The notes under the pieces are model-generated. The model ran no database searches. It saw only the letters and a list, made by a program, of their open reading frames with translations, and was not told where the DNA came from. Positions 4,284 through 26,517 of a DNA stretch of 26,517 bases are shown here, piece by piece (position 1 is the first letter of the stretch; each line of letters begins with the position of its first letter). Where the stretch lies: positions 1-26,517 of the forward strand of contig NBMG01000012.1 in NCBI GenBank assembly GCA_002084865.1. Direction: 5' to 3'. Source of the DNA: Candidatus Atribacteria bacterium 4572_76 (GTDB lineage Bacteria > Atribacterota > Phoenicimicrobiia > Phoenicimicrobiales > Phoenicimicrobiaceae). A program made the translations under genes and the position numbers.

Positions 4284-4365
4284 ATTTACAAACCCGGGTA
4301 ATATTAATTTAACTGTATAGGAATTTCCCTTTTCTGTAAGTACTAATTGGAATATAGTGATAAAA

Positions 4366-4424
4366 CGAAAAATGAAAAGCGCAAAACTAAATTCGTATCT
4401 CGTATCTCGTGAATCGTATCTCGT
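4366..4424 (+). repeat. Heptamer-array element, forward copy
   Basis: cgaaaaatgaaaagcgcaaaactaaattcgtatct-cgtatct-cgtgaat-cgtatct-cgt. Confidence 0.85.
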
Positions 4425-4704: not shown

Positions 4705-5715
4705 GTGAAAGTAAATTTGGCAGAGACTAATACGCATTTAATCAAAGCAAAACAGATACACCGGAAGGCGATAGTATTTGATGGGCATTGCGATACTATT
4801 TTAGAGGTTATGAACCATAAAAGAACCTTAGAAAAAAAATCAACTACCGGTCACCTGGATATTCCCAGAATGAAAGAAGGAGGGATTGATGTCCAGTTTT
4901 TTGCTGTTTTCATAGAAGACATTTATAAACCGGATAGGTCATTAAAAAGAACCTTGCAACTAATTGATTGTTTTTATAGAGAAATAGAGAATAACCAGGA
5001 TGATATATCATCGGTTACTAATTATGATCAATTAAAGGGAATAAATAGAGCAGGAAAGATTGCCGCTGTCCTTTCCATTGAAGGAGGGGAAGCTTTAGAA
5101 GGTGATTTGGGAGTATTGAGAGTGTTATATAGATTAGGAGTCAGGCTCTTAACTCTCACCTGGAATCAGAGAAATCAGATTGCTGACGGGGTTGGTGAAT
5201 CCCGGACCGGCAGTGGTTTAACCGAATTTGGTTTAAAAGTAATAGATGAGATGAATGACCTGGGGATGCTGATTGATGTATCCCACCTTTCCGAGACTGG
5301 TTTTTGGGATGTGGTTAAAAGAAGCAAAGCACCCATTGTTGCTTCTCATTCTAATTGTTACGCTTTATGTCCCCATCTTCGAAATTTAAAAGATGAGCAA
5401 ATTAAAGCTATAGCCGATAAAGGTGGAGTAATAGGGATAACCTTCGTGCCTAATTTTTTAACTCAAGAAAAAAGAAAAACTACCGTAGAAGATGTGGTAA
5501 GACATATTGATTATTTAGTAGAAAAAGCAGGAATAGATTGTGTAGGATTAGGTTCTGATTTTGACGGGACAGGTGGTCTTCCTTTGGGGTTAGAGGGAGT
5601 TGATAAAATTCCTAATATCACTGAAGGGTTACTCGACCGAGGGTATAAAGAAAAGGATATCAAGAAAATACTGGGAGAAAATTTCTTAAGAGTATTTAAA
5701 GAGGTAGTAGGATAA
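4705..5715 (+). CDS. Membrane dipeptidase (peptidase M19 family)
   Basis: FDGHCDT, SIEGG, TLTWN, DVSHLS, ASHSN, GLGSDFDG and ILGENFLRV motifs. The start may be TTG 4717. Confidence 0.92.
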   Translation: MKVNLAETNTHLIKAKQIHRKAIVFDGHCDTILEVMNHKRTLEKKSTTGHLDIPRMKEGGIDVQFFAVFIEDIYKPDRSLKRTLQLIDCFYREIENNQDDISSVTNYDQLKGINRAGKIAAVLSIEGGEALEGDLGVLRVLYRLGVRLLTLTWNQRNQIADGVGESRTGSGLTEFGLKVIDEMNDLGMLIDVSHLSETGFWDVVKRSKAPIVASHSNCYALCPHLRNLKDEQIKAIADKGGVIGITFVPNFLTQEKRKTTVEDVVRHIDYLVEKAGIDCVGLGSDFDGTGGLPLGLEGVDKIPNITEGLLDRGYKEKDIKKILGENFLRVFKEVVG

Positions 5716-7744: not shown

Positions 7745-8770
7745 ATGAAAGCAGCTGTATTTTATGCACCCGGCCAGGTAAGGTTGGAAGAAATTAATAT
7801 TCCGAATGTCGGTCCCGACGAAGTTTTAGTAAAAGTGAAAGCCGCACTTACCTGCGGGACAGATCGTAAAACCTACTTAAGGGGACATCATTTATTTAAT
7901 CCGCCTTTTGTTTTTGGCCATGAGTTTGCCGGTGATATAGTAGAAGTAGGCAGTAAGGTTAAAAAATTTAAACCGGGAATGAGAGTGGTAGCCGCTAATT
8001 CTGCTCCTTGTAATTCCTGTTTTTACTGTAAAAATGGTGAACATAGCTTGTGTGATAGTTTATTTATTCAATTAAGTGGTGCTTTTGCAGAATATATAAA
8101 AATTCCCGGAATAATTGTTTCTCAAAATTTATTGTTATTTCCTGAGACAGTAAGCTATAAAGAGGCAGCATTATTGGAGCCTCTATCTTGTGTAGTCCAT
8201 GGAGTTGAGGAATCAAATATTAATTTAGGTGATACAGTGGTTATAAACGGAGCAGGTCCGATAGGTTTAATGTTCTTACAAGTAGTTAAATTAAAAGGAG
8301 CAAGAGTTATTATAACCGATACAGTTGAGGAAAGATTAAAACTAGCCATAAAGTTAGGGGCTTATAAAGCAATAAATGTTTCTAAGGTGCAGGATCCTGT
8401 TGAAGAAGTTAAAAAACTTACTGAGGATAATAGAGGAGCAGATGTAGCCATTGAAGCAGTCGGGTTGCCGAAGGTTTGGGAGCAGACTATATCGATGGTA
8501 AGAAAAGGAGGAACGGTGAATCTTTTTGGGGGATGCAAAAGAGGAACGAAAATTTCTATTGACACCAGCCTAATTCACTATTCCCAAATTAACATAAAGG
8601 GAGTTTTTCATCATACACCCGGACATATCAAAAGAGCTTTAAATTTAATTTGTAATAAGGCAATCGATATCGATTCGCTGATTACTGATGAACTTCCCCT
8701 TGGCGAAATATCTACTGTAATAGAGATGATGTTGGCCCATAAAGGCATTAAAATAGCAGTGATTCCTTGA
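7745..8770 (+). CDS. Zn-dependent medium-chain dehydrogenase (threonine/sorbitol DH-like)
   Basis: CGTD, GHE, structural Zn motif CxxCxxC...C, EPLSC, Rossmann GAGPIG. Confidence 0.92.
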   Translation: MKAAVFYAPGQVRLEEINIPNVGPDEVLVKVKAALTCGTDRKTYLRGHHLFNPPFVFGHEFAGDIVEVGSKVKKFKPGMRVVAANSAPCNSCFYCKNGEHSLCDSLFIQLSGAFAEYIKIPGIIVSQNLLLFPETVSYKEAALLEPLSCVVHGVEESNINLGDTVVINGAGPIGLMFLQVVKLKGARVIITDTVEERLKLAIKLGAYKAINVSKVQDPVEEVKKLTEDNRGADVAIEAVGLPKVWEQTISMVRKGGTVNLFGGCKRGTKISIDTSLIHYSQINIKGVFHHTPGHIKRALNLICNKAIDIDSLITDELPLGEISTVIEMMLAHKGIKIAVIP

Positions 8771-8941
8771 TCCGTATATCGTATCTCGTGAATCGTATCT
8801 CGCAAAAACAAATAGTTAGAAATATTAAAAAATTAAAAAAGTTGTGTGTTTGAATTTATTTTCTTTCAAGACACTAGATACGAGATACGAACAACGAAAT
8901 TGTATTGCGTATCGCGTATAAGATAAAGTCATAAGGTACAA

Positions 8942-9131: not shown

Positions 9132-10157
9132 ATGAAAGCTTTAGTCAAATACGGAAAAGGCGAAAATGATATAGAATTGAGAGAAATTCCCGAACCCATT
9201 CCTAAACCCAATGAAGTAAAAGTTAAAGTGGAGGCTACGGGAATCTGTGGAACCGATCTTTATGGTTATTCAGCCCTAAAACCTCCGGTGGTATTAGGAC
9301 ACGAAACCGCCGGGGTTGTGGTAAAAGTAGGGGAAGAAGTAAAAAATATAAAAGTAGGAGACAGGGTTACTACCGAAACTACTGCCTATATCTGTGGCCA
9401 ATGTAAATTTTGCCAGAGCAAAGATTATAATTTATGCATTCATCGTAAAGGGTTAGGATCTGCTGTTAACGGGGCTTTTGCTGAATATTTTGTGATAAGA
9501 AAAGAAAGCATCCACCAAATTCCTCTTCATATTGATTTTAATTCGGCTTCTCTTTTCGAACCTTTATCTTGCGCTGTTCATGCAGTAATAGAAAAAGCTA
9601 ATTTGTTATCCCATGAAAAAGTTTTGGTGTTAGGACCGGGACCCCTCGGCTTATTAACTGCTCAAATTGCTAAGTCTTTAGGAGCAAAAGTAATTATTTG
9701 TGGAATTGAAGGCGATGAAAAAAGATTATCTACCGCAAAAAAACTGGGAATTAATCAAATTTTTAATATAAAAAAGAAGGATATTGAGAACTATTTGTCG
9801 AAATTAACAACAGGGATTGGTGTAGATGTGGTTTTTGAATGTTCAGGTTCTGTTGAAGCTGTGGAGTACGGATTAAATCTTATAAGGAAAGGGGGTAGAT
9901 ATATTCAGGAAGGAATTATCCACCAACCGATTCAGCTTAGATTTGATCAAATCTTATTTGACAAAGAACTAAGTATTATTGGTTCTCGTACCCAGAAACC
10001 TTCTTCCTGGGATAAGGCAATAGATCTGGTAAACGAAGGGAAGGTAAATTTAGAAGAATTGGTTAGTGATGTACTTCCCTTAAGTAAATGGAAAGAGGGT
10101 TTTAAGCGGGCAAAGAAAAAAAATTCTATTAAAATAGTTCTTCAGCCGGATAAGTAA
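9132..10157 (+). CDS. Second Zn-dependent medium-chain dehydrogenase (sorbitol/iditol DH-like)
   Basis: GICGTD, GHE, CGQCKFC...C, EPLSC, GPGPLG. Confidence 0.92.
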   Translation: MKALVKYGKGENDIELREIPEPIPKPNEVKVKVEATGICGTDLYGYSALKPPVVLGHETAGVVVKVGEEVKNIKVGDRVTTETTAYICGQCKFCQSKDYNLCIHRKGLGSAVNGAFAEYFVIRKESIHQIPLHIDFNSASLFEPLSCAVHAVIEKANLLSHEKVLVLGPGPLGLLTAQIAKSLGAKVIICGIEGDEKRLSTAKKLGINQIFNIKKKDIENYLSKLTTGIGVDVVFECSGSVEAVEYGLNLIRKGGRYIQEGIIHQPIQLRFDQILFDKELSIIGSRTQKPSSWDKAIDLVNEGKVNLEELVSDVLPLSKWKEGFKRAKKKNSIKIVLQPDK

Positions 10158-12505: not shown

Positions 12506-12666
12506 AATTTCTTTATCTTTCTTTTCTTTGGTTTTAGAGTCTGTCTTTTTGGGAATTTCTTTCTTTTCTTGCCCCTCTATTGAGGAAGTGGTTAATCTTT
12601 TCTTTTCCGACTGAATTTTTCAAAAACATTCCCGCATTTTTTACACTTATATTCATATGTTGGCAT
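12494..12666 (-). pseudogene. Disrupted FmdB-family zinc-ribbon gene
   Basis: Hand translation from ATG 12666 (after GGGAG): MPTYEYKCKKCGNVFEKFSRKRKD*. A shifted frame continues QSEKKRLTTSS...KEISLK* to 12494. Only one CxxC is present. Confidence 0.75.
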
Positions 12667-19189: not shown

Positions 19190-19348
19190 GTAGGGGCACG
19201 ATGCATCGTGCCCACAGGAGAAATTAGTTAATAACATAGTGAGGGCACAATTCATTGTGCCCCTACAACAATAATATGTAGAGGCGTATTGTTATATGCT
19301 TCCGATGATCCATATGAAACCGTAGGATAGGCGTCTCGCCTGTCCTAC
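19190..19348. repeat. REP cluster: doublet 19190-19266, degenerate REP at 19278, palindrome 19322-19348
   Basis: GTAG...CTAC-bounded hairpins; gtaggataggcgtctcgcctgtcctac matches 21335-21357. Confidence 0.85.
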
Positions 19349-21225: not shown

Positions 21226-21439
21226 AAAACAGTATCGAGTATCAAGTATATAGTATCGAGTCAAGAAAGAAAAAGAAAAATTTAGAAGAATATAGATGTA
21301 GGGGCAGACCTTGTGTCTTCCCTAATAAATAACCGTAGGACAGGCGTCTCGTCTGTCAAAATCTCGGGGTGGATGAATCCGACCCCTTGTATTTCTTTTC
21401 TTGGCTATATACTCGATACTCAATACTATATACTGTTTT
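21226..21439. repeat. Long imperfect inverted repeat of GTATCGA/GTATATA heptamers enclosing REP hairpins
   Basis: 21226-21270 pairs with 21392-21439. Related arms lie at 1631-1648/1803-1820 and about 26133-26180. Confidence 0.8.
21298..21386. repeat. Cluster of three REP-type hairpins
   Basis: 21298-21322, 21335-21357 and 21366-21386 are related to 8942, 19322 and 302-360 respectively. Confidence 0.8.
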
Positions 21440-21513
21440 TCTATACGCTAAACGCTGTACGCTTCACGCTAGTTTTATTCACTAACGACTAATTTTGTTT
21501 AAGGAAGAAAAAA

Positions 21514-22377: not shown

Positions 22378-22689
22378 TCATATAGGGATTTTCTTTTTTC
22401 GTAAGTCCTAATTCGTATTTCGTATCCCCGTTTTCACGGGGACAAGTCTTGTGAATCGTATCTCGTAAAGAGAATAAAAGCCAGAAGACAGAATCCAGTA
22501 TTCAGAATTATTTAAAATTATGAGATTATATTCTTCTGACTTCTGACTACTGGCTCCTGAATTCTTAAATAACAATTATGATTTTTCGCTTTTAGTTTTA
22601 AATTATTAGCTATATTAAAAACTGAAACTTGTATTTAAAACTAACGACTATTCACTATTCACTATTGACTAATCCAATAAGATATTTTT

Positions 22690-22775: not shown

Positions 22776-24903
22776 ATGACTAAATATGATATTAACAAAG
22801 TAAAAAATATTGCCTTGGTAGGCCATGGTGATTCCGGAAAAACCTCGCTTACCGAGGCTTTGCTTTATGATTCAGGAATGATTACTAGATTAGGAGATAT
22901 AAAACAAGGTAATACCACTACCGATTATGACCCCCGAGAAATAAAGAAGGGAATAACCATCAATTCGTCTTTAGCCTATTTCGATTGGAAGGGTTTGATG
23001 GTAAATATTCTCGATACCCCGGGCTACCTTGATTTTATTACTGATACTAAATTAAGCCTTAGAGTTGCAGATAGTGCCATAATAGTTGTATGCGGAGTAT
23101 CAGGAGTAGAAGTGCAGACTGAAAAAGTCTGGGATTTTGCTGATGAATACAAACTACCCCGAGCTATTTTTGTAAATAAGATGGATCGAGAAAGGGCAGA
23201 TTTTTATCGAGTAAAAGATACGATTAATAAAGTTTTTGGTTCATCTGCAATTTCAATACAATTGCCCATTGGCAAGGAAGAAAATTTTCAGGGTGTAGTC
23301 GATTTAATAAAGATGAAAGCAGTTGTTTATAAAAAATCAGGAGAGGGTAAGCCGATGGGTAAGCCGATGTTTGAAGAAAAGGAAATCCCCCAGGATATGA
23401 AAGAACAGGCAGAATCCTATCGAAAAGAATTAGTAGAAGCAGTAGCTGAATTTGATGATGAAATTTTAATGAAATGAAATTTTAATGAAATATTTGGACG
23501 GGGAAAGTTTAACTAACCAGGAGATTTCTTCTTTGTTAAAAAAAGGAGTAAAAGAGAAAAAGATAGTACCTATTCTTTGCGGTTCAGCAACTATGAATTT
23601 AGGTATAGAATATCTTCTCGATTTTATAGTCGAATATCTTCCTTCTCCATCTGAGATGCCCCCTGTTGCAGCTAAAAATGTAAAAACTTCTTCCGAAGAA
23701 TTAATAGAAAATTCTATTGATTCCCCTTTCTCTGCTTTTGTTTTTAAAACTGTAGCAGACCCTTATGTAGGAAACTTAACTTACTTTAGAGTGTATTCAG
23801 GGAAATTATCCGAAGATTCAAATATTTATAATTCTTCAAAAACTATAGATAATAAAGTAGGAAAAATTTATAAAATGCAGGGTAAGAATCAACGTTCTAT
23901 TTCTGAGGTTTGTGCCGGAGATATAGCTGCGGTAGCCAAACTTAAGAATACTGTTACCGGTGATACTCTCTGCGATAAAGATAATCCTGTTTTATTTGAA
24001 AAAATAGAATATCCCGAGCCAATAATGCTGCTGGCAATCTCTCCCAAGACTAAGGGAGATGAGGATAAGTTAAGTACCGCTCTAAGTAAAATAATTGATG
24101 AGGATCCTACGGTTAAAGTTTACCGGGATGAAGATACCGGAGAGAGTATATTGGCTGGTATGGGAGAATCCCATTTGGAAGTAATAATTGATACCATGGA
24201 AAGTAAATTTGGAGTAGAGGTGGAAAAGAGCACTCCTAAAGTAGGGTATAAAGAGACTATCCGAAAAAGTGTTAAGGTAGAAGGAAAATACAAAAAGCAA
24301 TCCGGCGGAAGAGGACAGTACGGACATTGTTGGTTAGAGCTTGAACCCAGAGGTAGGGGAGAAGGCTTTGAATTTGTAGATAAAATAGTCGGTGGAGTAA
24401 TTCCCCGCCAGTATCGTCCTGCAGTAGAAAAAGGTGTAGTTGGAGCAATGAAAAAAGGAGTATTGGCAGGATATCCCACCGTAGATATAAGGGCTACTGT
24501 TTATGATGGTAGTTATCACCCGGTAGATTCTTCAGAGATGGCTTTTAAAGTAGCAGGCTCAATGGCTTTTAAGAAAGGAGCGGCAGAAGCAAATCCGGTC
24601 TTATTAGAGCCCATCATGGACATAGAAGTAATAGTGCCAAAAGAATATATGGGGGATATAATCGGAGATTTAAATAGTAAAAGAGGAAAGATAATGGGTA
24701 TGGAAGAGTCTTCAAGCGGGAAACAGTCTATTAAAGCTAAAATACCTCAAGCAGAAATTTTTAAATATGCTATCGATTTACGGTCAATTACTCAAGGTAG
24801 AGGAACTTTTAGTTTGAAATTTTCCCATTATGAAGAGGTCCCTGCCAATATTGTACAGGAAATAATTGCTCAAGCCAAAGAAAAAGAGGAAGAGAAAAAA
24901 TAA
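22776..24903 (+). pseudogene. fusA: Elongation factor G paralogue (EF-G2/EFG II-like) split by a 16-nt tandem duplication
   Basis: GHGDSGKT, GIT, DTPGY, NKMD, DEDP, GMGE, KKQSGGRGQYG, VDSSEMAF, LRSITQGRG. Removing one copy of atgaaattttaatgaa (23458-73/23474-89) gives a continuous 703-aa ORF. Confidence 0.92.
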
Positions 24904-24940
24904 TTCTTAAAAAATATTTAAAAAATATTTTAAAAAAAGA

Positions 24941-24965
24941 AGGATTTTTAAATTTAGTATAGAAT
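24941..24965 (+). promoter_or_regulatory. sigmaH-like promoter (AGGA-TTT-N11-ATA-GAAT)
   Basis: Exact fit to the SigH consensus RNAGGAWWW-N11-RNNGAAT, 74 nt upstream of ATG 25039. Confidence 0.5.
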
Positions 24966-25038
24966 ATATTAAAAGAAGGTAAATTTATTTATCGATCGAT
25001 TCTTAAAAAATATTTTAAAAAAAGGGAGGTGTAATAAT

Positions 25039-25110
25039 ATGGAATGGTATTGGTGGGCGGCAATTATTGCAGCAGTAGCTTATTTGATATACTATTTTTA
25101 TGGAGAATAA
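25039..25110 (+). CDS. 23-aa hydrophobic aromatic-rich peptide MEWYWWAAIIAAVAYLIYYFYGE
   Basis: GGAGGTG SD (25025-31) 7 nt before ATG, single-TM composition, below the ORF-track cutoff. Confidence 0.75.
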   Translation: MEWYWWAAIIAAVAYLIYYFYGE

Positions 25111-25173
25111 GCAGCATAGAATTAAAAAATGAATTAATATTTAATTTACAAAAATTGAAAGAAACGTTTCTAC

Positions 25174-25210
25174 AAGTGCAGGGCGAAGCAAATTGTCCTG
25201 CACTTTATTT
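25174..25210 (+). terminator. Hairpin/possible intrinsic terminator after the small peptide
   Basis: aagtgcagggcga/ttgtcctgcactt 13-bp stem (2 G-U), followed by tattt. Confidence 0.55.
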
Positions 25211-25234
25211 ATCTTGATCAAAAGGGTGATTAAT

Positions 25235-26118
25235 TTGAAATTAAAAACTAAAAAAAGATATATTTTATTAATTTTGCTTTTCCTTATTTTCTTTATTATT
25301 ACTTATGAATCAATGGCAAATGAAGAAAATGGGGAAAACAGAGTTATCCCTTTAGGAGAAGTAGATTCATTAAAAGTGACTATAAAATTTGGAGCGGGAA
25401 AGTTGAGTTTAGCTTCCGGGCAAGAAGATGTATTTGAAGGTAATTTTCAATATGATAAAAGTATCTTAAAACCTAATATTCAATATAAAATATCAGGGAG
25501 AACTGGTACCCTAACCTTATCTCAGAGTATTAAAAAGGACCTTAATTTGGCATTTCCCCACAGAAATATATGGAATTTGAAATTGCCTTCCGGTGTTCCT
25601 TTGCAATTGTATATTAATACTGCGACTTATAGCGGTGATATTGACCTAACTAATTTACAGGTAGAAAATCTTTATCTCACTTCAGGAGCAAGCAAAACCA
25701 ATATTGTATTTAGTCAGCCTAATTTTATAGACTTAAAAAATATTAATATAAAAACAGGTGCCTCAACTATAAAAATGTTAGGCTTAGCTAATGCTAATTT
25801 TAATGAAATGAATTTTACCGGTGGAGCAGGGAGCTACACCTTTGATTTTTCAGGTGAACTGACTAAAAAATCGAAAGTTAACATTAATACAGGGGCAGCC
25901 AAAATAATTTTAAAGATACCTTCGAACACTGGAACTAAGATAATTTTTAGAAATTTTCCCGCTTCAAAATTAGACATCAGGGGTTTTATAAAAATAGTTT
26001 TATAAAAATAAATGACCAAACCTATATTAGCCCGGAATATGGCAAGAGTAATGCGGAATTAGATATTGAAATTAAGGGAGGCCTGCTAGATGTTGAGGTA
26101 GTTTCGTTAACTGACTAA
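25235..26118 (+). pseudogene. Exported 'toast-rack'/DUF2154-like beta-repeat protein, frameshifted near the C-terminus by a 14-nt tandem duplication
   Basis: TTG start after AAGGGTGA, N-terminal TM, repeated GAGK/GASK/GAAK turns. Removing one gttttataaaaata copy (25983-96/25997-26010) restores ...GFIKINDQTYISPEYGKSNAELDIEIKGGLLDVEVVSLTD*. Confidence 0.8.
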
Positions 26119-26517
26119 ATTAGTCGTTAGTGAAAACAGTATCAAGTATCGGGTATATAGTATCGAGTGAGGAAAAGAAAAAAAGAAATGCAAGAAAAAA
26201 CAGTTTTCAGATAATAAAAGGTGCAAATATAATAATTGCTCGATTGCCAAGTTGACCAATTGTTAAAGAAAAAAACTTGTAACCCATAACCCGTAACTTA
26301 TTACATATTACTCATCACTTATCACTGTATTTTATTCTGGCTCCTGACTCCTGGCTTCTTTATTCTATTTTTTCCCACCGGCTAGCCGGTAAACTGGCAA
26401 ACCAGGTAACGGGATAACTAATACATACGAGATACGATTCACGAGGTACGACTTTATTTTGGCTTCCTTCTTTTCTCATTTTCTTCACTATCCGCTGTAC
26501 GTTCCATATTATAATGC

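Follow-up and report, generated by a model that had tools for sequence, protein, structure and literature searches.

Four perfect tandem repeats lie within 2.7 kb of a contig from an Atribacterota MAG, where they appear to break or alter genes, and the question raised by this locus is whether they record a local mutational process or the way in which the genome was assembled. The window analysed here is the whole contig, a stretch of 26,517 nt; its source genome is a MAG of 1.07 Mb in 116 contigs, 64% complete, with a smallest contig of 5022 nt. The repeats were reported in an earlier note made from the sequence alone, and both the sequence itself and Tandem Repeats Finder confirm all four at the positions given in Table 1. 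The perfect repeats have units of 12 (2.1 copies), 16, 11 and 14 nt, and the 11-nt one is enclosed by a looser A/T tract of 3.5 copies. All four repeats far exceed chance, as had been claimed. The 12-, 14- and 16-nt units lie in coding DNA, are of complex sequence and show no periodicity, and their expectations per window are 4e-3, 3e-4 and 2e-5, respectively. Their coding effects are also as described: the extra 12-nt copy keeps the frame, so that EF-G reads ...GKPMGKPM..., the extra 16-nt copy puts EF-G out of frame and into a stop (...DDEILMK*), and with the extra 14-nt copy the last gene encodes 256 aa in place of 289. With a probability of about 0.93, we consider the 12-, 16- and 14-nt 'duplications' to be scaffold-join assembly errors of a known kind, not biology, and the 11-nt tract to be genuine.

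Table 1. Features of the 26,517-nt window, with the duplications labelled according to the reading favoured here
Feature	Position	Strand	Remarks
Blunt join, 190 nt missing	8919..8920		Intergenic spacer between two alcohol-dehydrogenase paralogues
Blunt join, 136 nt missing	12612..12613		A 102-aa minus-strand gene (Zn_ribbon_8) is lost
Blunt join, 129 nt missing	19270..19271		Intergenic
EF-G gene	22776..24903	+	Deposited as 2128 nt, split into 233-aa and 472-aa ORFs; probable true form 2100 nt, 699 aa
Join 1, putative unmerged 12-nt overlap	23345..23369		GGGTAAGCCGAT x2 plus G; on a strain-polymorphic site
Mini-piece of 117 nt between joins 1 and 2	23357..23473		
Join 2, putative unmerged 16-nt overlap	23458..23491		ATGAAATTTTAATGAA x2; gives rise to the apparent EF-G frameshift
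11-nt perfect repeat, real	24907..24930		In the A/T-rich intergenic tract 24895-24937, just 3' of the EF-G stop
Sister box	25000..25027		The TTCTTAAAAAATATTTTAAAAAAAG motif for a second time, immediately 5' of the Shine-Dalgarno of a 57-aa ORF
Toast_rack_N (PF17115) family gene	25235..26118	+	Deposited stop at 26005, 256 aa; probable true form 289 aa, ending at 26118
Join 3, putative unmerged 14-nt overlap	25983..26010		GTTTTATAAAAATA x2

For comparison, independent assemblies of this Atribacterota population were taken from ENA, JGI and NCBI. Over 14.5 kb, the window shows 2 mismatches to one of them (L009), and all length differences between the two are +12, +16, +14, −136 and −129 nt; L010–L016 agree with L009, while L051 and L054–L056 add a difference of −190 nt at 8919. 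The duplicated junctions are absent from these independent assemblies of the population. The same holds for sister genomes, to which the earlier note had looked for comparison: seven congeners, one of them at 97% identity, are single copy at the sites of the 12-, 16- and 14-nt duplications. The duplication at join 1 was not found in eight independent assemblies, the seven congeners or four more JGI/GenBank contigs, and that at join 2 was not found in any other assembly or congener compared. A scan of JGI metagenomes at join 2, with a pattern tolerating 0–16 extra bases, gave four matches, all single copy, and 8–12 independent contigs cover each EF-G site, every one of them single copy. The duplication at join 3 was not found in L009–L012 or L059, five independent contigs that are all single copy.

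When both EF-G duplications are collapsed, the product is a protein of 699 aa whose sole difference from the intact EF-G of L009 is M194I, and the gene takes the length of 2100 nt seen in congeners, against 2128 nt here. The intact EF-G passes the NCBIfam model TIGR00484 (865 bits against a cut-off of 659) and is recorded on four contigs (NCBI, JGI, Logan and ENA); the 233-aa and 472-aa fragments are recorded solely on this contig. Collapsing the 14-nt duplication likewise gives a translation identical to the 289-aa protein of L009, and the PF17115 label of this downstream gene comes from its intact homologues. Since collapse restores both the 699-aa EF-G and the 289-aa Toast_rack protein, both genes appear to be intact, and the EF-G gene, judged from its sequence, is in all probability not truly broken. 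Join 1 falls on a polymorphic patch of three SNPs, where other assemblies have ATA or ACC in place of the ATG of the window. The G at 23369 was not seen in any assembly compared, so this join contains one or more additional variants or errors. Pieces of 130–149 nt, like the mini-piece between joins 1 and 2, also separate paired duplications on three other contigs (C69, C94 and C108).

The earlier note had offered two alternatives, of which the assembly artefact stands for the 12-, 16- and 14-nt units, and the local mutational process is rejected. Under the latter, real and very recent mutations would have arisen within 2.7 kb by fill-in of staggered breaks, through NHEJ-type repair or through transposon or integrase excision. 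The copies are indeed perfect, non-periodic and without flanking microhomology, and thus a poor fit to ordinary slippage, yet we regard this origin as highly improbable. The duplications are missing in every near-identical assembly and would require five indels against two substitutions relative to L009 over 14.5 kb; they would also inactivate an EF-G that passes its equivalog model. Moreover, the unit lengths vary (12, 14 and 16 nt here, 12–72 nt genome-wide), whereas a single transposase has a fixed target-site length, and the copies abut with nothing between them. A check of the host for Ku had also been suggested, and a search with PF02735 gave no match in this 64%-complete genome, while the Bacillus subtilis positive control matched, a negative that says little at this completeness.

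The 11-nt repeat had been grouped with the other three, which was wrong. Its region is the same in six independent assemblies, and the seven congeners contain both 11-nt 'copies' as imperfect repeats, with their length kept within 1–2 nt. With no difference between assemblies and an imperfect form throughout the genus, the repeat is a genuine and old A/T-rich intergenic tract. It resembles a natural slippage-type tract in being a low-complexity sequence found in independent assemblies and in relatives. The sister box is conserved in congeners as well.

The window's first 23 kb, in which the earlier note had seen no comparable exact coding duplications, proved not to be clean, given that blunt omissions of 190, 136 and 129 nt are found there relative to independent assemblies. 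The 190 extra nt at 8919 are present in all four of L051, L054, L055 and L056. The 136-nt segment at 12612 is carried by L009 and L051, and the Zn_ribbon_8 gene is called in both, with no corresponding ORF among those of the window. At or near 19270, the alignments of eight assemblies to the window break (L009–L014, L017 and L015, the last 97 nt short), and the missing 129-nt segment can be displayed from L009. Microhomology was looked for at the omission junctions and was not seen, the junctions being blunt. Elsewhere in this part of the window, a 336-aa protein (4705–5712) had no record among encoding contigs, and the adjacent 255-aa protein did match.

Nor is the 2.7-kb cluster unique to this locus, which also corrects the earlier note. 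A tandem-repeat scan of the whole genome identified 36 non-periodic perfect duplications of 12–72 nt, against ~0.2 expected, in coding and non-coding DNA over about 29 contigs and with clusters on several of them; 10 first-order Markov surrogates of the 1.07-Mb genome contained 0–1 such repeats apiece. The rate is ~33 duplications per Mb, at which 6.3 would be expected in the 186 kb of other assemblies scanned, where none was found (P = 0.002). The largest duplication measures 72 nt, and none is longer. Three assemblies with 99.3–99.8% identity to C69 lack its duplications of 45, 28 and 46 nt and also its 38-nt omission at C69:5542. Further duplications of 24 nt (C69), 27 nt (C73) and 31 nt (C108) are not in congeners. 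All nine resolved duplications of at least 12 nt are assembly-specific, and the two repeats of up to 11 nt that were tested are both shared. These nine leave out a 21-nt duplication within C27:5700–6849 (without match in five congeners) and those of 21 nt on C12, 14 nt on C108 and 24 nt on C28, whose regions are variable or missing in relatives. Whole-contig searches of C69 and C28 against congeners mostly matched dispersed intergenic repeats.

The assembly also carries other marks of scaffolding. One of the 36 duplications flanks a run of 31 Ns at C62:1195–1225, with the same 64 nt on either side; here a scaffold join can be seen directly, its 64-nt overlap left unmerged. Duplicated flanks occur at one of six N-runs. 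The omissions at 8919, 12612, 19270 and C69:5542 belong to the same category of marks. Scaffold joins and occurrence throughout the genome had both been named beforehand as observations that would speak against a local process, and both were found, in the form of the N-run with its overlap and the 36 duplications. These occur genome-wide, independently of gene context and below the k-mer of the assembler, if, as seems probable, that k-mer is the one used in the study discussed below. The coexistence of 129–190-nt blunt omissions and an overlap-flanked N-run in the same genome further argues against real mutation. Duplication lengths that are multiples of three are mildly over-represented genome-wide (17 of 36, one-sided P = 0.058), which leans towards real mutation but is not decisive, and a few of the in-frame duplications could therefore be natural.

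A 177-nt junction-rich query against indexed sequencing runs gave a top share of 0.58, with 12 runs at 0.50 and two at 0.58, which matches the shares of 0.503 and 0.592 predicted for holders of the single-copy form; one run in this group contains 0.96 of the surrounding 3.3 kb. Sampled junction-spanning 31-mers were absent from all indexed runs, the index consisting of contigs and not of raw reads, and this absence is another point against real mutation. The Logan contigs and the other assemblies show that the single-copy form is present, and a minority double-copy form is not strictly shown to be absent. We attach very little probability to a minority sediment lineage that truly carries dozens of fresh blunt 12–72-nt duplications and 40–190-nt deletions. 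If it did exist, the implication would be an unusual repair process in Atribacterota, by end-joining or template switching, observed at a stage when selection had not yet purged the broken genes.

The runs also bear on the suggestion, raised in the earlier note, that the errors predate assembly, as amplification or library-preparation chimeras that were then faithfully assembled. Four of the runs that contain this sequence (X11, X13, X25 and X26) carry the label of a single organism and may come from amplified DNA, but the organism-labelled runs fit the single-copy prediction (share of 0.58 against 0.592). Amplification chimeras are chiefly inversions and long-range joins, and so differ from perfect 12–72-nt head-to-tail repeats paired with blunt omissions. 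In addition, the 64-nt overlap around the Ns of C62 points to a scaffolder and not to a polymerase, and chimeras of this origin are thus scarcely credible here.

An assembly artefact is the preferred reading because no independent assembly or congener has the duplications and their junction words occur in no indexed run, and because the pattern is genome-wide and accompanied by blunt omissions and by an N-run with an unmerged overlap around it. Under this reading, the de Bruijn graph would have broken through low coverage or strain variation, leaving two pieces whose ends share a sequence too short for k-mer overlap detection. The scaffolder would then join the pieces by read pairs and, with a gap estimate of zero or less, concatenate them without merging, so that the shared bases are present twice. 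If a short gap was real but received the same estimate, abutting the pieces would cost 129–190 nt, and a positive estimate would lead to the insertion of Ns. Low coverage is a probable cause of the graph breaks. Strain variation, considered as the only cause, fits join 1 and is not evident at joins 2 and 3.

Local assembly errors that include duplicated sequence at scaffold joins have been described previously and are prominent in IDBA-UD scaffolds (Chen et al. 2020, Genome Res 30:315, PMC7111523). In a study of the Guaymas Basin, IDBA-UD was used with a mink of 75, and scaffolds of at least 5 kb were binned (Dombrowski et al. 2017, PMC5569505). These settings match the present genome, since its minimum contig is 5022 nt and its duplications reach a ceiling of 72 nt (<75). 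The genome is consistent with a set of IDBA-UD scaffolds with a lower limit of 5 kb, like that of the 2017 study, and its source sample was probably hydrothermal or marine sediment.

These results have little biological weight, and their value is practical. The genome serves as the species representative in the searched set, which holds one genome per species, and errors of this kind are already in protein collections, to which this contig alone contributes the 233-aa and 472-aa EF-G fragments as separate proteins. Given ~33 duplications per Mb and three blunt omissions in 26.5 kb, no apparent frameshift, split gene, short in-frame repeat or absence of a small gene in this MAG should be taken as biology, and the caution extends to similar scaffold-level MAGs. 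Such assemblies can be recognised by a simple screen for N-runs whose two flanks are identical and for tandem repeats that are perfect, non-periodic and 12 to k-1 nt long.

Among known systems, replication-slippage repeats of A/T-rich spacers resemble only the 11-nt repeat, a low-complexity A/T tract conserved imperfectly across the genus, and are unlike the 12-, 14- and 16-nt units. Transposon target-site duplications and excision footprints are similar in being short direct repeats of ~2–15 nt without internal periodicity, but they have one fixed length per element and an element or scar between the copies, whereas the repeats found here range over 12–72 nt, abut directly and are not in near-identical genomes. 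The errors described by Chen et al. are the closer parallel, with duplicated flanks at joins (once with Ns between them, on C62), a consensus found in no other assembly, broken or altered genes and many errors per Mb. They differ in that the joins in this genome are mostly without Ns, which makes them resemble clean tandem duplications, and are accompanied by blunt omissions of 38–190 nt.

Direct reading and Tandem Repeats Finder both recovered the four perfect tandem repeats that an earlier note had described in the window, which comprises the whole of contig C91 (see table). The chance expectation per window is 4e-3 (unit 12), 3e-4 (unit 14) and 2e-5 (unit 16). Translation of the window bore out the coding effects stated there: the 12-nt repeat inserts GKPM in frame into EF-G, the 16-nt repeat shifts the EF-G frame, with a stop after ...DDEILMK, and the 14-nt repeat truncates the 289-aa product of a Toast_rack_N-family gene further downstream to 256 aa. 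The repeats are confirmed as observed, and the 12-, 16- and 14-nt duplications are not a real feature.

Tandem repeats and examples of heptamer arrays in the window
Feature	Unit (nt)	Position	Basis
Perfect tandem repeat	12	23345-23369	direct reading, Tandem Repeats Finder
Perfect tandem repeat	16	23458-23491	direct reading, Tandem Repeats Finder
Perfect tandem repeat	11	24907-24930	direct reading, Tandem Repeats Finder
Perfect tandem repeat	14	25983-26010	direct reading, Tandem Repeats Finder
Heptamer arrays (examples)	7	1630-1661, 1798-1833, 2159-2189, 4362-4424, 8773-8802, 21231-21261, 21405-21471, 22397-22425, 26138-26168, 26296-26326	

The same locus is available from independent assemblies of the population, the radical-SAM protein directly upstream of EF-G being identical on at least 10 independent contigs (ENA, JGI, NCBI). 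The closest of these assemblies, L009 (DOMB18-1_SAMN06288063 scaffold_7885), shows 2 substitutions against the window over 14.5 kb, and the sole length differences are the duplications (+12, +16 and +14 nt in the window) and two omissions (-136 at 12612 and -129 at 19270); seven further contigs (L010-L016) agree with L009 wherever they cover these sites. A second look-up confirmed the 136-nt omission, which takes out part of a 102-aa zinc-ribbon gene present in other assemblies, and revealed 190 nt omitted at 8919/8920 relative to four assemblies. All three omissions are blunt and without microhomology. The 190-nt omission falls in a repeat-rich spacer between tandem 341-aa zinc alcohol-dehydrogenase paralogues (7745-8770, 9132-10157).

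The comparison with sister genomes proposed in the earlier note gave the same result, with EF-G measuring 2100 nt, with single copies, in seven congeners (one at 97% identity). At the 16-nt site, all four matching JGI metagenome contigs carry a single copy under a search pattern allowing 0-16 extra bases. When one copy of each duplication is removed in silico, EF-G becomes a 699-aa protein differing from that of L009 solely by M194I, and the Toast_rack_N-family protein becomes 289 aa and identical to its L009 counterpart. The NCBIfam EF-G equivalog model accepts the intact EF-G, whose presence in other assemblies and after collapse contradicts a reading of the locus as a split EF-G paralogue. 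The intact protein occurs on four contigs from four sources, while the EF-G fragments are recorded as proteins solely from this 26517-nt contig, so that the artefact is already in the databases.

The EF-G gene (22776-24903) is not part of a str operon, its neighbours being the radical-SAM protein and an AP endonuclease, and a second, distant EF-G-like gene (G000:C58:140-1711, ~66% nucleotide identity over parts) is also found in most congeners. At least three haplotypes of EF-G codons 190-194 (23354-23370) exist in public data, with residue 194 as I (ATA), T (ACC, two linked changes) or M (ATG, as in the window). The G variant at 23369 is apparently single copy in two organism-labelled runs.

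Read support was approached through a run index built from contigs and sampled at 12 words, queried with 177 nt (23327-23503), half of whose 31-mers cross a junction. A run carrying the common haplotype in single copy should score a share of 0.503, and one whose single-copy haplotype has G at 23369 a share of 0.592; the observed maxima were 0.50 (twelve runs) and 0.58 (two runs), and the surrounding 3.3 kb reached 0.96 in one of those runs. Junction words occurred in no indexed run, as judged from 12 sampled words in this index of contigs rather than reads. Given that design, the result is supportive of a single copy, not decisive.

The pattern extends beyond the 2.7 kb that the earlier note singled out. 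A scan of the whole genome (1.07 Mb, 116 contigs, each at least 5022 nt, 64% complete, GC 35%) detected 36 perfect duplications without periodicity, 12-72 nt long with none above 72 nt, against ~0.2 repeats of at least 12 nt expected per 1.07 Mb from whole-genome Markov surrogates. Contig C69 carries four within 5.2 kb, and pairs are spaced 115-117 nt apart on C94 and C108 and 113 nt apart in EF-G, the mini-pieces between paired joins being 117-149 nt. The 45-, 28- and 46-nt duplications of C69 are missing from three assemblies 99.3-99.8% identical to it, which also have an additional 38 nt, absent from C69 at 5542; the 24-nt duplication of C69, the in-frame 27-nt one of C73 and the 31-nt one of C108 are missing from congeners. 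Thus, all nine resolved duplications of at least 12 nt are assembly-specific. Loci from other assemblies totalling 186 kb contained no non-periodic duplication of at least 12 nt, whereas the rate seen in this genome predicts 6.3 (P = 0.002).

It is very improbable that a real mutational process made the duplications. The sole hint of one is that in-frame lengths are mildly over-represented, at 17 of 36 (P = 0.058). Such a process would need five indels against two substitutions relative to the sister assembly and would have to copy units of varying length while leaving nothing between them; it would also have to inactivate an equivalog-grade EF-G, and its junctions are seen in no public run. 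A Ku gene was not found, which is weak evidence in a genome 64% complete. An artefact of amplification before assembly deserves equally little credence, as it leaves the blunt omissions unexplained, together with an N-run on contig C62 (1195-1225, one of six in the genome) whose 31 Ns have an identical 64 nt on either side; moreover, the organism-labelled runs appear to carry one copy. The C62 N-run is a visible scaffold join with overlapping ends left unmerged. Of the artefacts that the earlier note had entertained, assembly is the one upheld, by this join and by the absence of the duplications from independent assemblies and congeners.

Two repeats no longer than 11 nt were tested, the one in the window and a 10-nt repeat within the P-loop of an ABC-ATPase on C28; both are shared and therefore natural. 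The 11-nt repeat is identical in every independent assembly, and in the seven congeners both copies appear as imperfect A/T-rich repeats of a length within 1-2 nt; judged from this comparison, the repeat represents an old tract of low complexity immediately past the EF-G stop, which chances to be perfect in this strain. Between the EF-G stop and a 57-aa ORF (25044-25217) lie two copies of a ~25-nt motif, TTCTTAAAAAATATTTTAAAAAAAG (24895-24937, 25000-25027), with a spacing of ~95 nt, and both are kept in the seven congeners. Its conserved second copy adjoins the Shine-Dalgarno of that ORF, and the motif could act as a promoter or a regulatory box.

Nearly all intergenic spacers of the window hold arrays of 4-5 imperfect heptamer repeats, which stand beside most genes; the unit changes from one array to the next (AGTATCG, CTATACG, ACGCAAT, AAAACGA and others). 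Related intergenic elements (C69:6500-6700, C28:7200-7700) match dozens of loci per congener at 80-97% identity, and the arrays look like a genus-wide dispersed repeat family, which may contribute to assembly-graph breaks. The names borne by near relatives assign the organism to Atribacterota / Caldatribacteriota. A response-regulator/HD-domain protein (P0004) that NCBI labels as from a 'Candidatus Woesearchaeota archaeon' MAG is 91% identical to its counterpart on C69 of this Atribacterota genome; the contig encoding P0004 may be mis-binned in the public genome.

The duplications and omissions are assembly-specific and blunt, occur alongside an overlap-flanked N-run and have a ceiling of 72 nt. 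For an origin in assembly, low coverage or strain variation would break the de Bruijn graph, leaving neighbouring pieces that end in overlaps shorter than k; the 12-nt join falls in a short stretch where haplotypes differ by three SNPs. A scaffolder would then link the pieces through read pairs. With an estimated gap of zero or less, overlapping ends would be concatenated into a duplication and a small real gap into an omission, while a positive estimate would lead to inserted Ns. What makes the finding useful is the warning it gives about the quality of this representative genome. The 2017 Guaymas Basin study used IDBA-UD (mink 75, maxk 105) and took scaffolds of at least 5 kb into binning (PMC5569505), a pipeline that the contigs of at least 5 kb, the N-runs of estimated length, a best holder that is a sediment run of 2017 and the 72-nt ceiling all fit, and local assembly errors of just this kind were described by Chen et al. 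2020 (PMC7111523).
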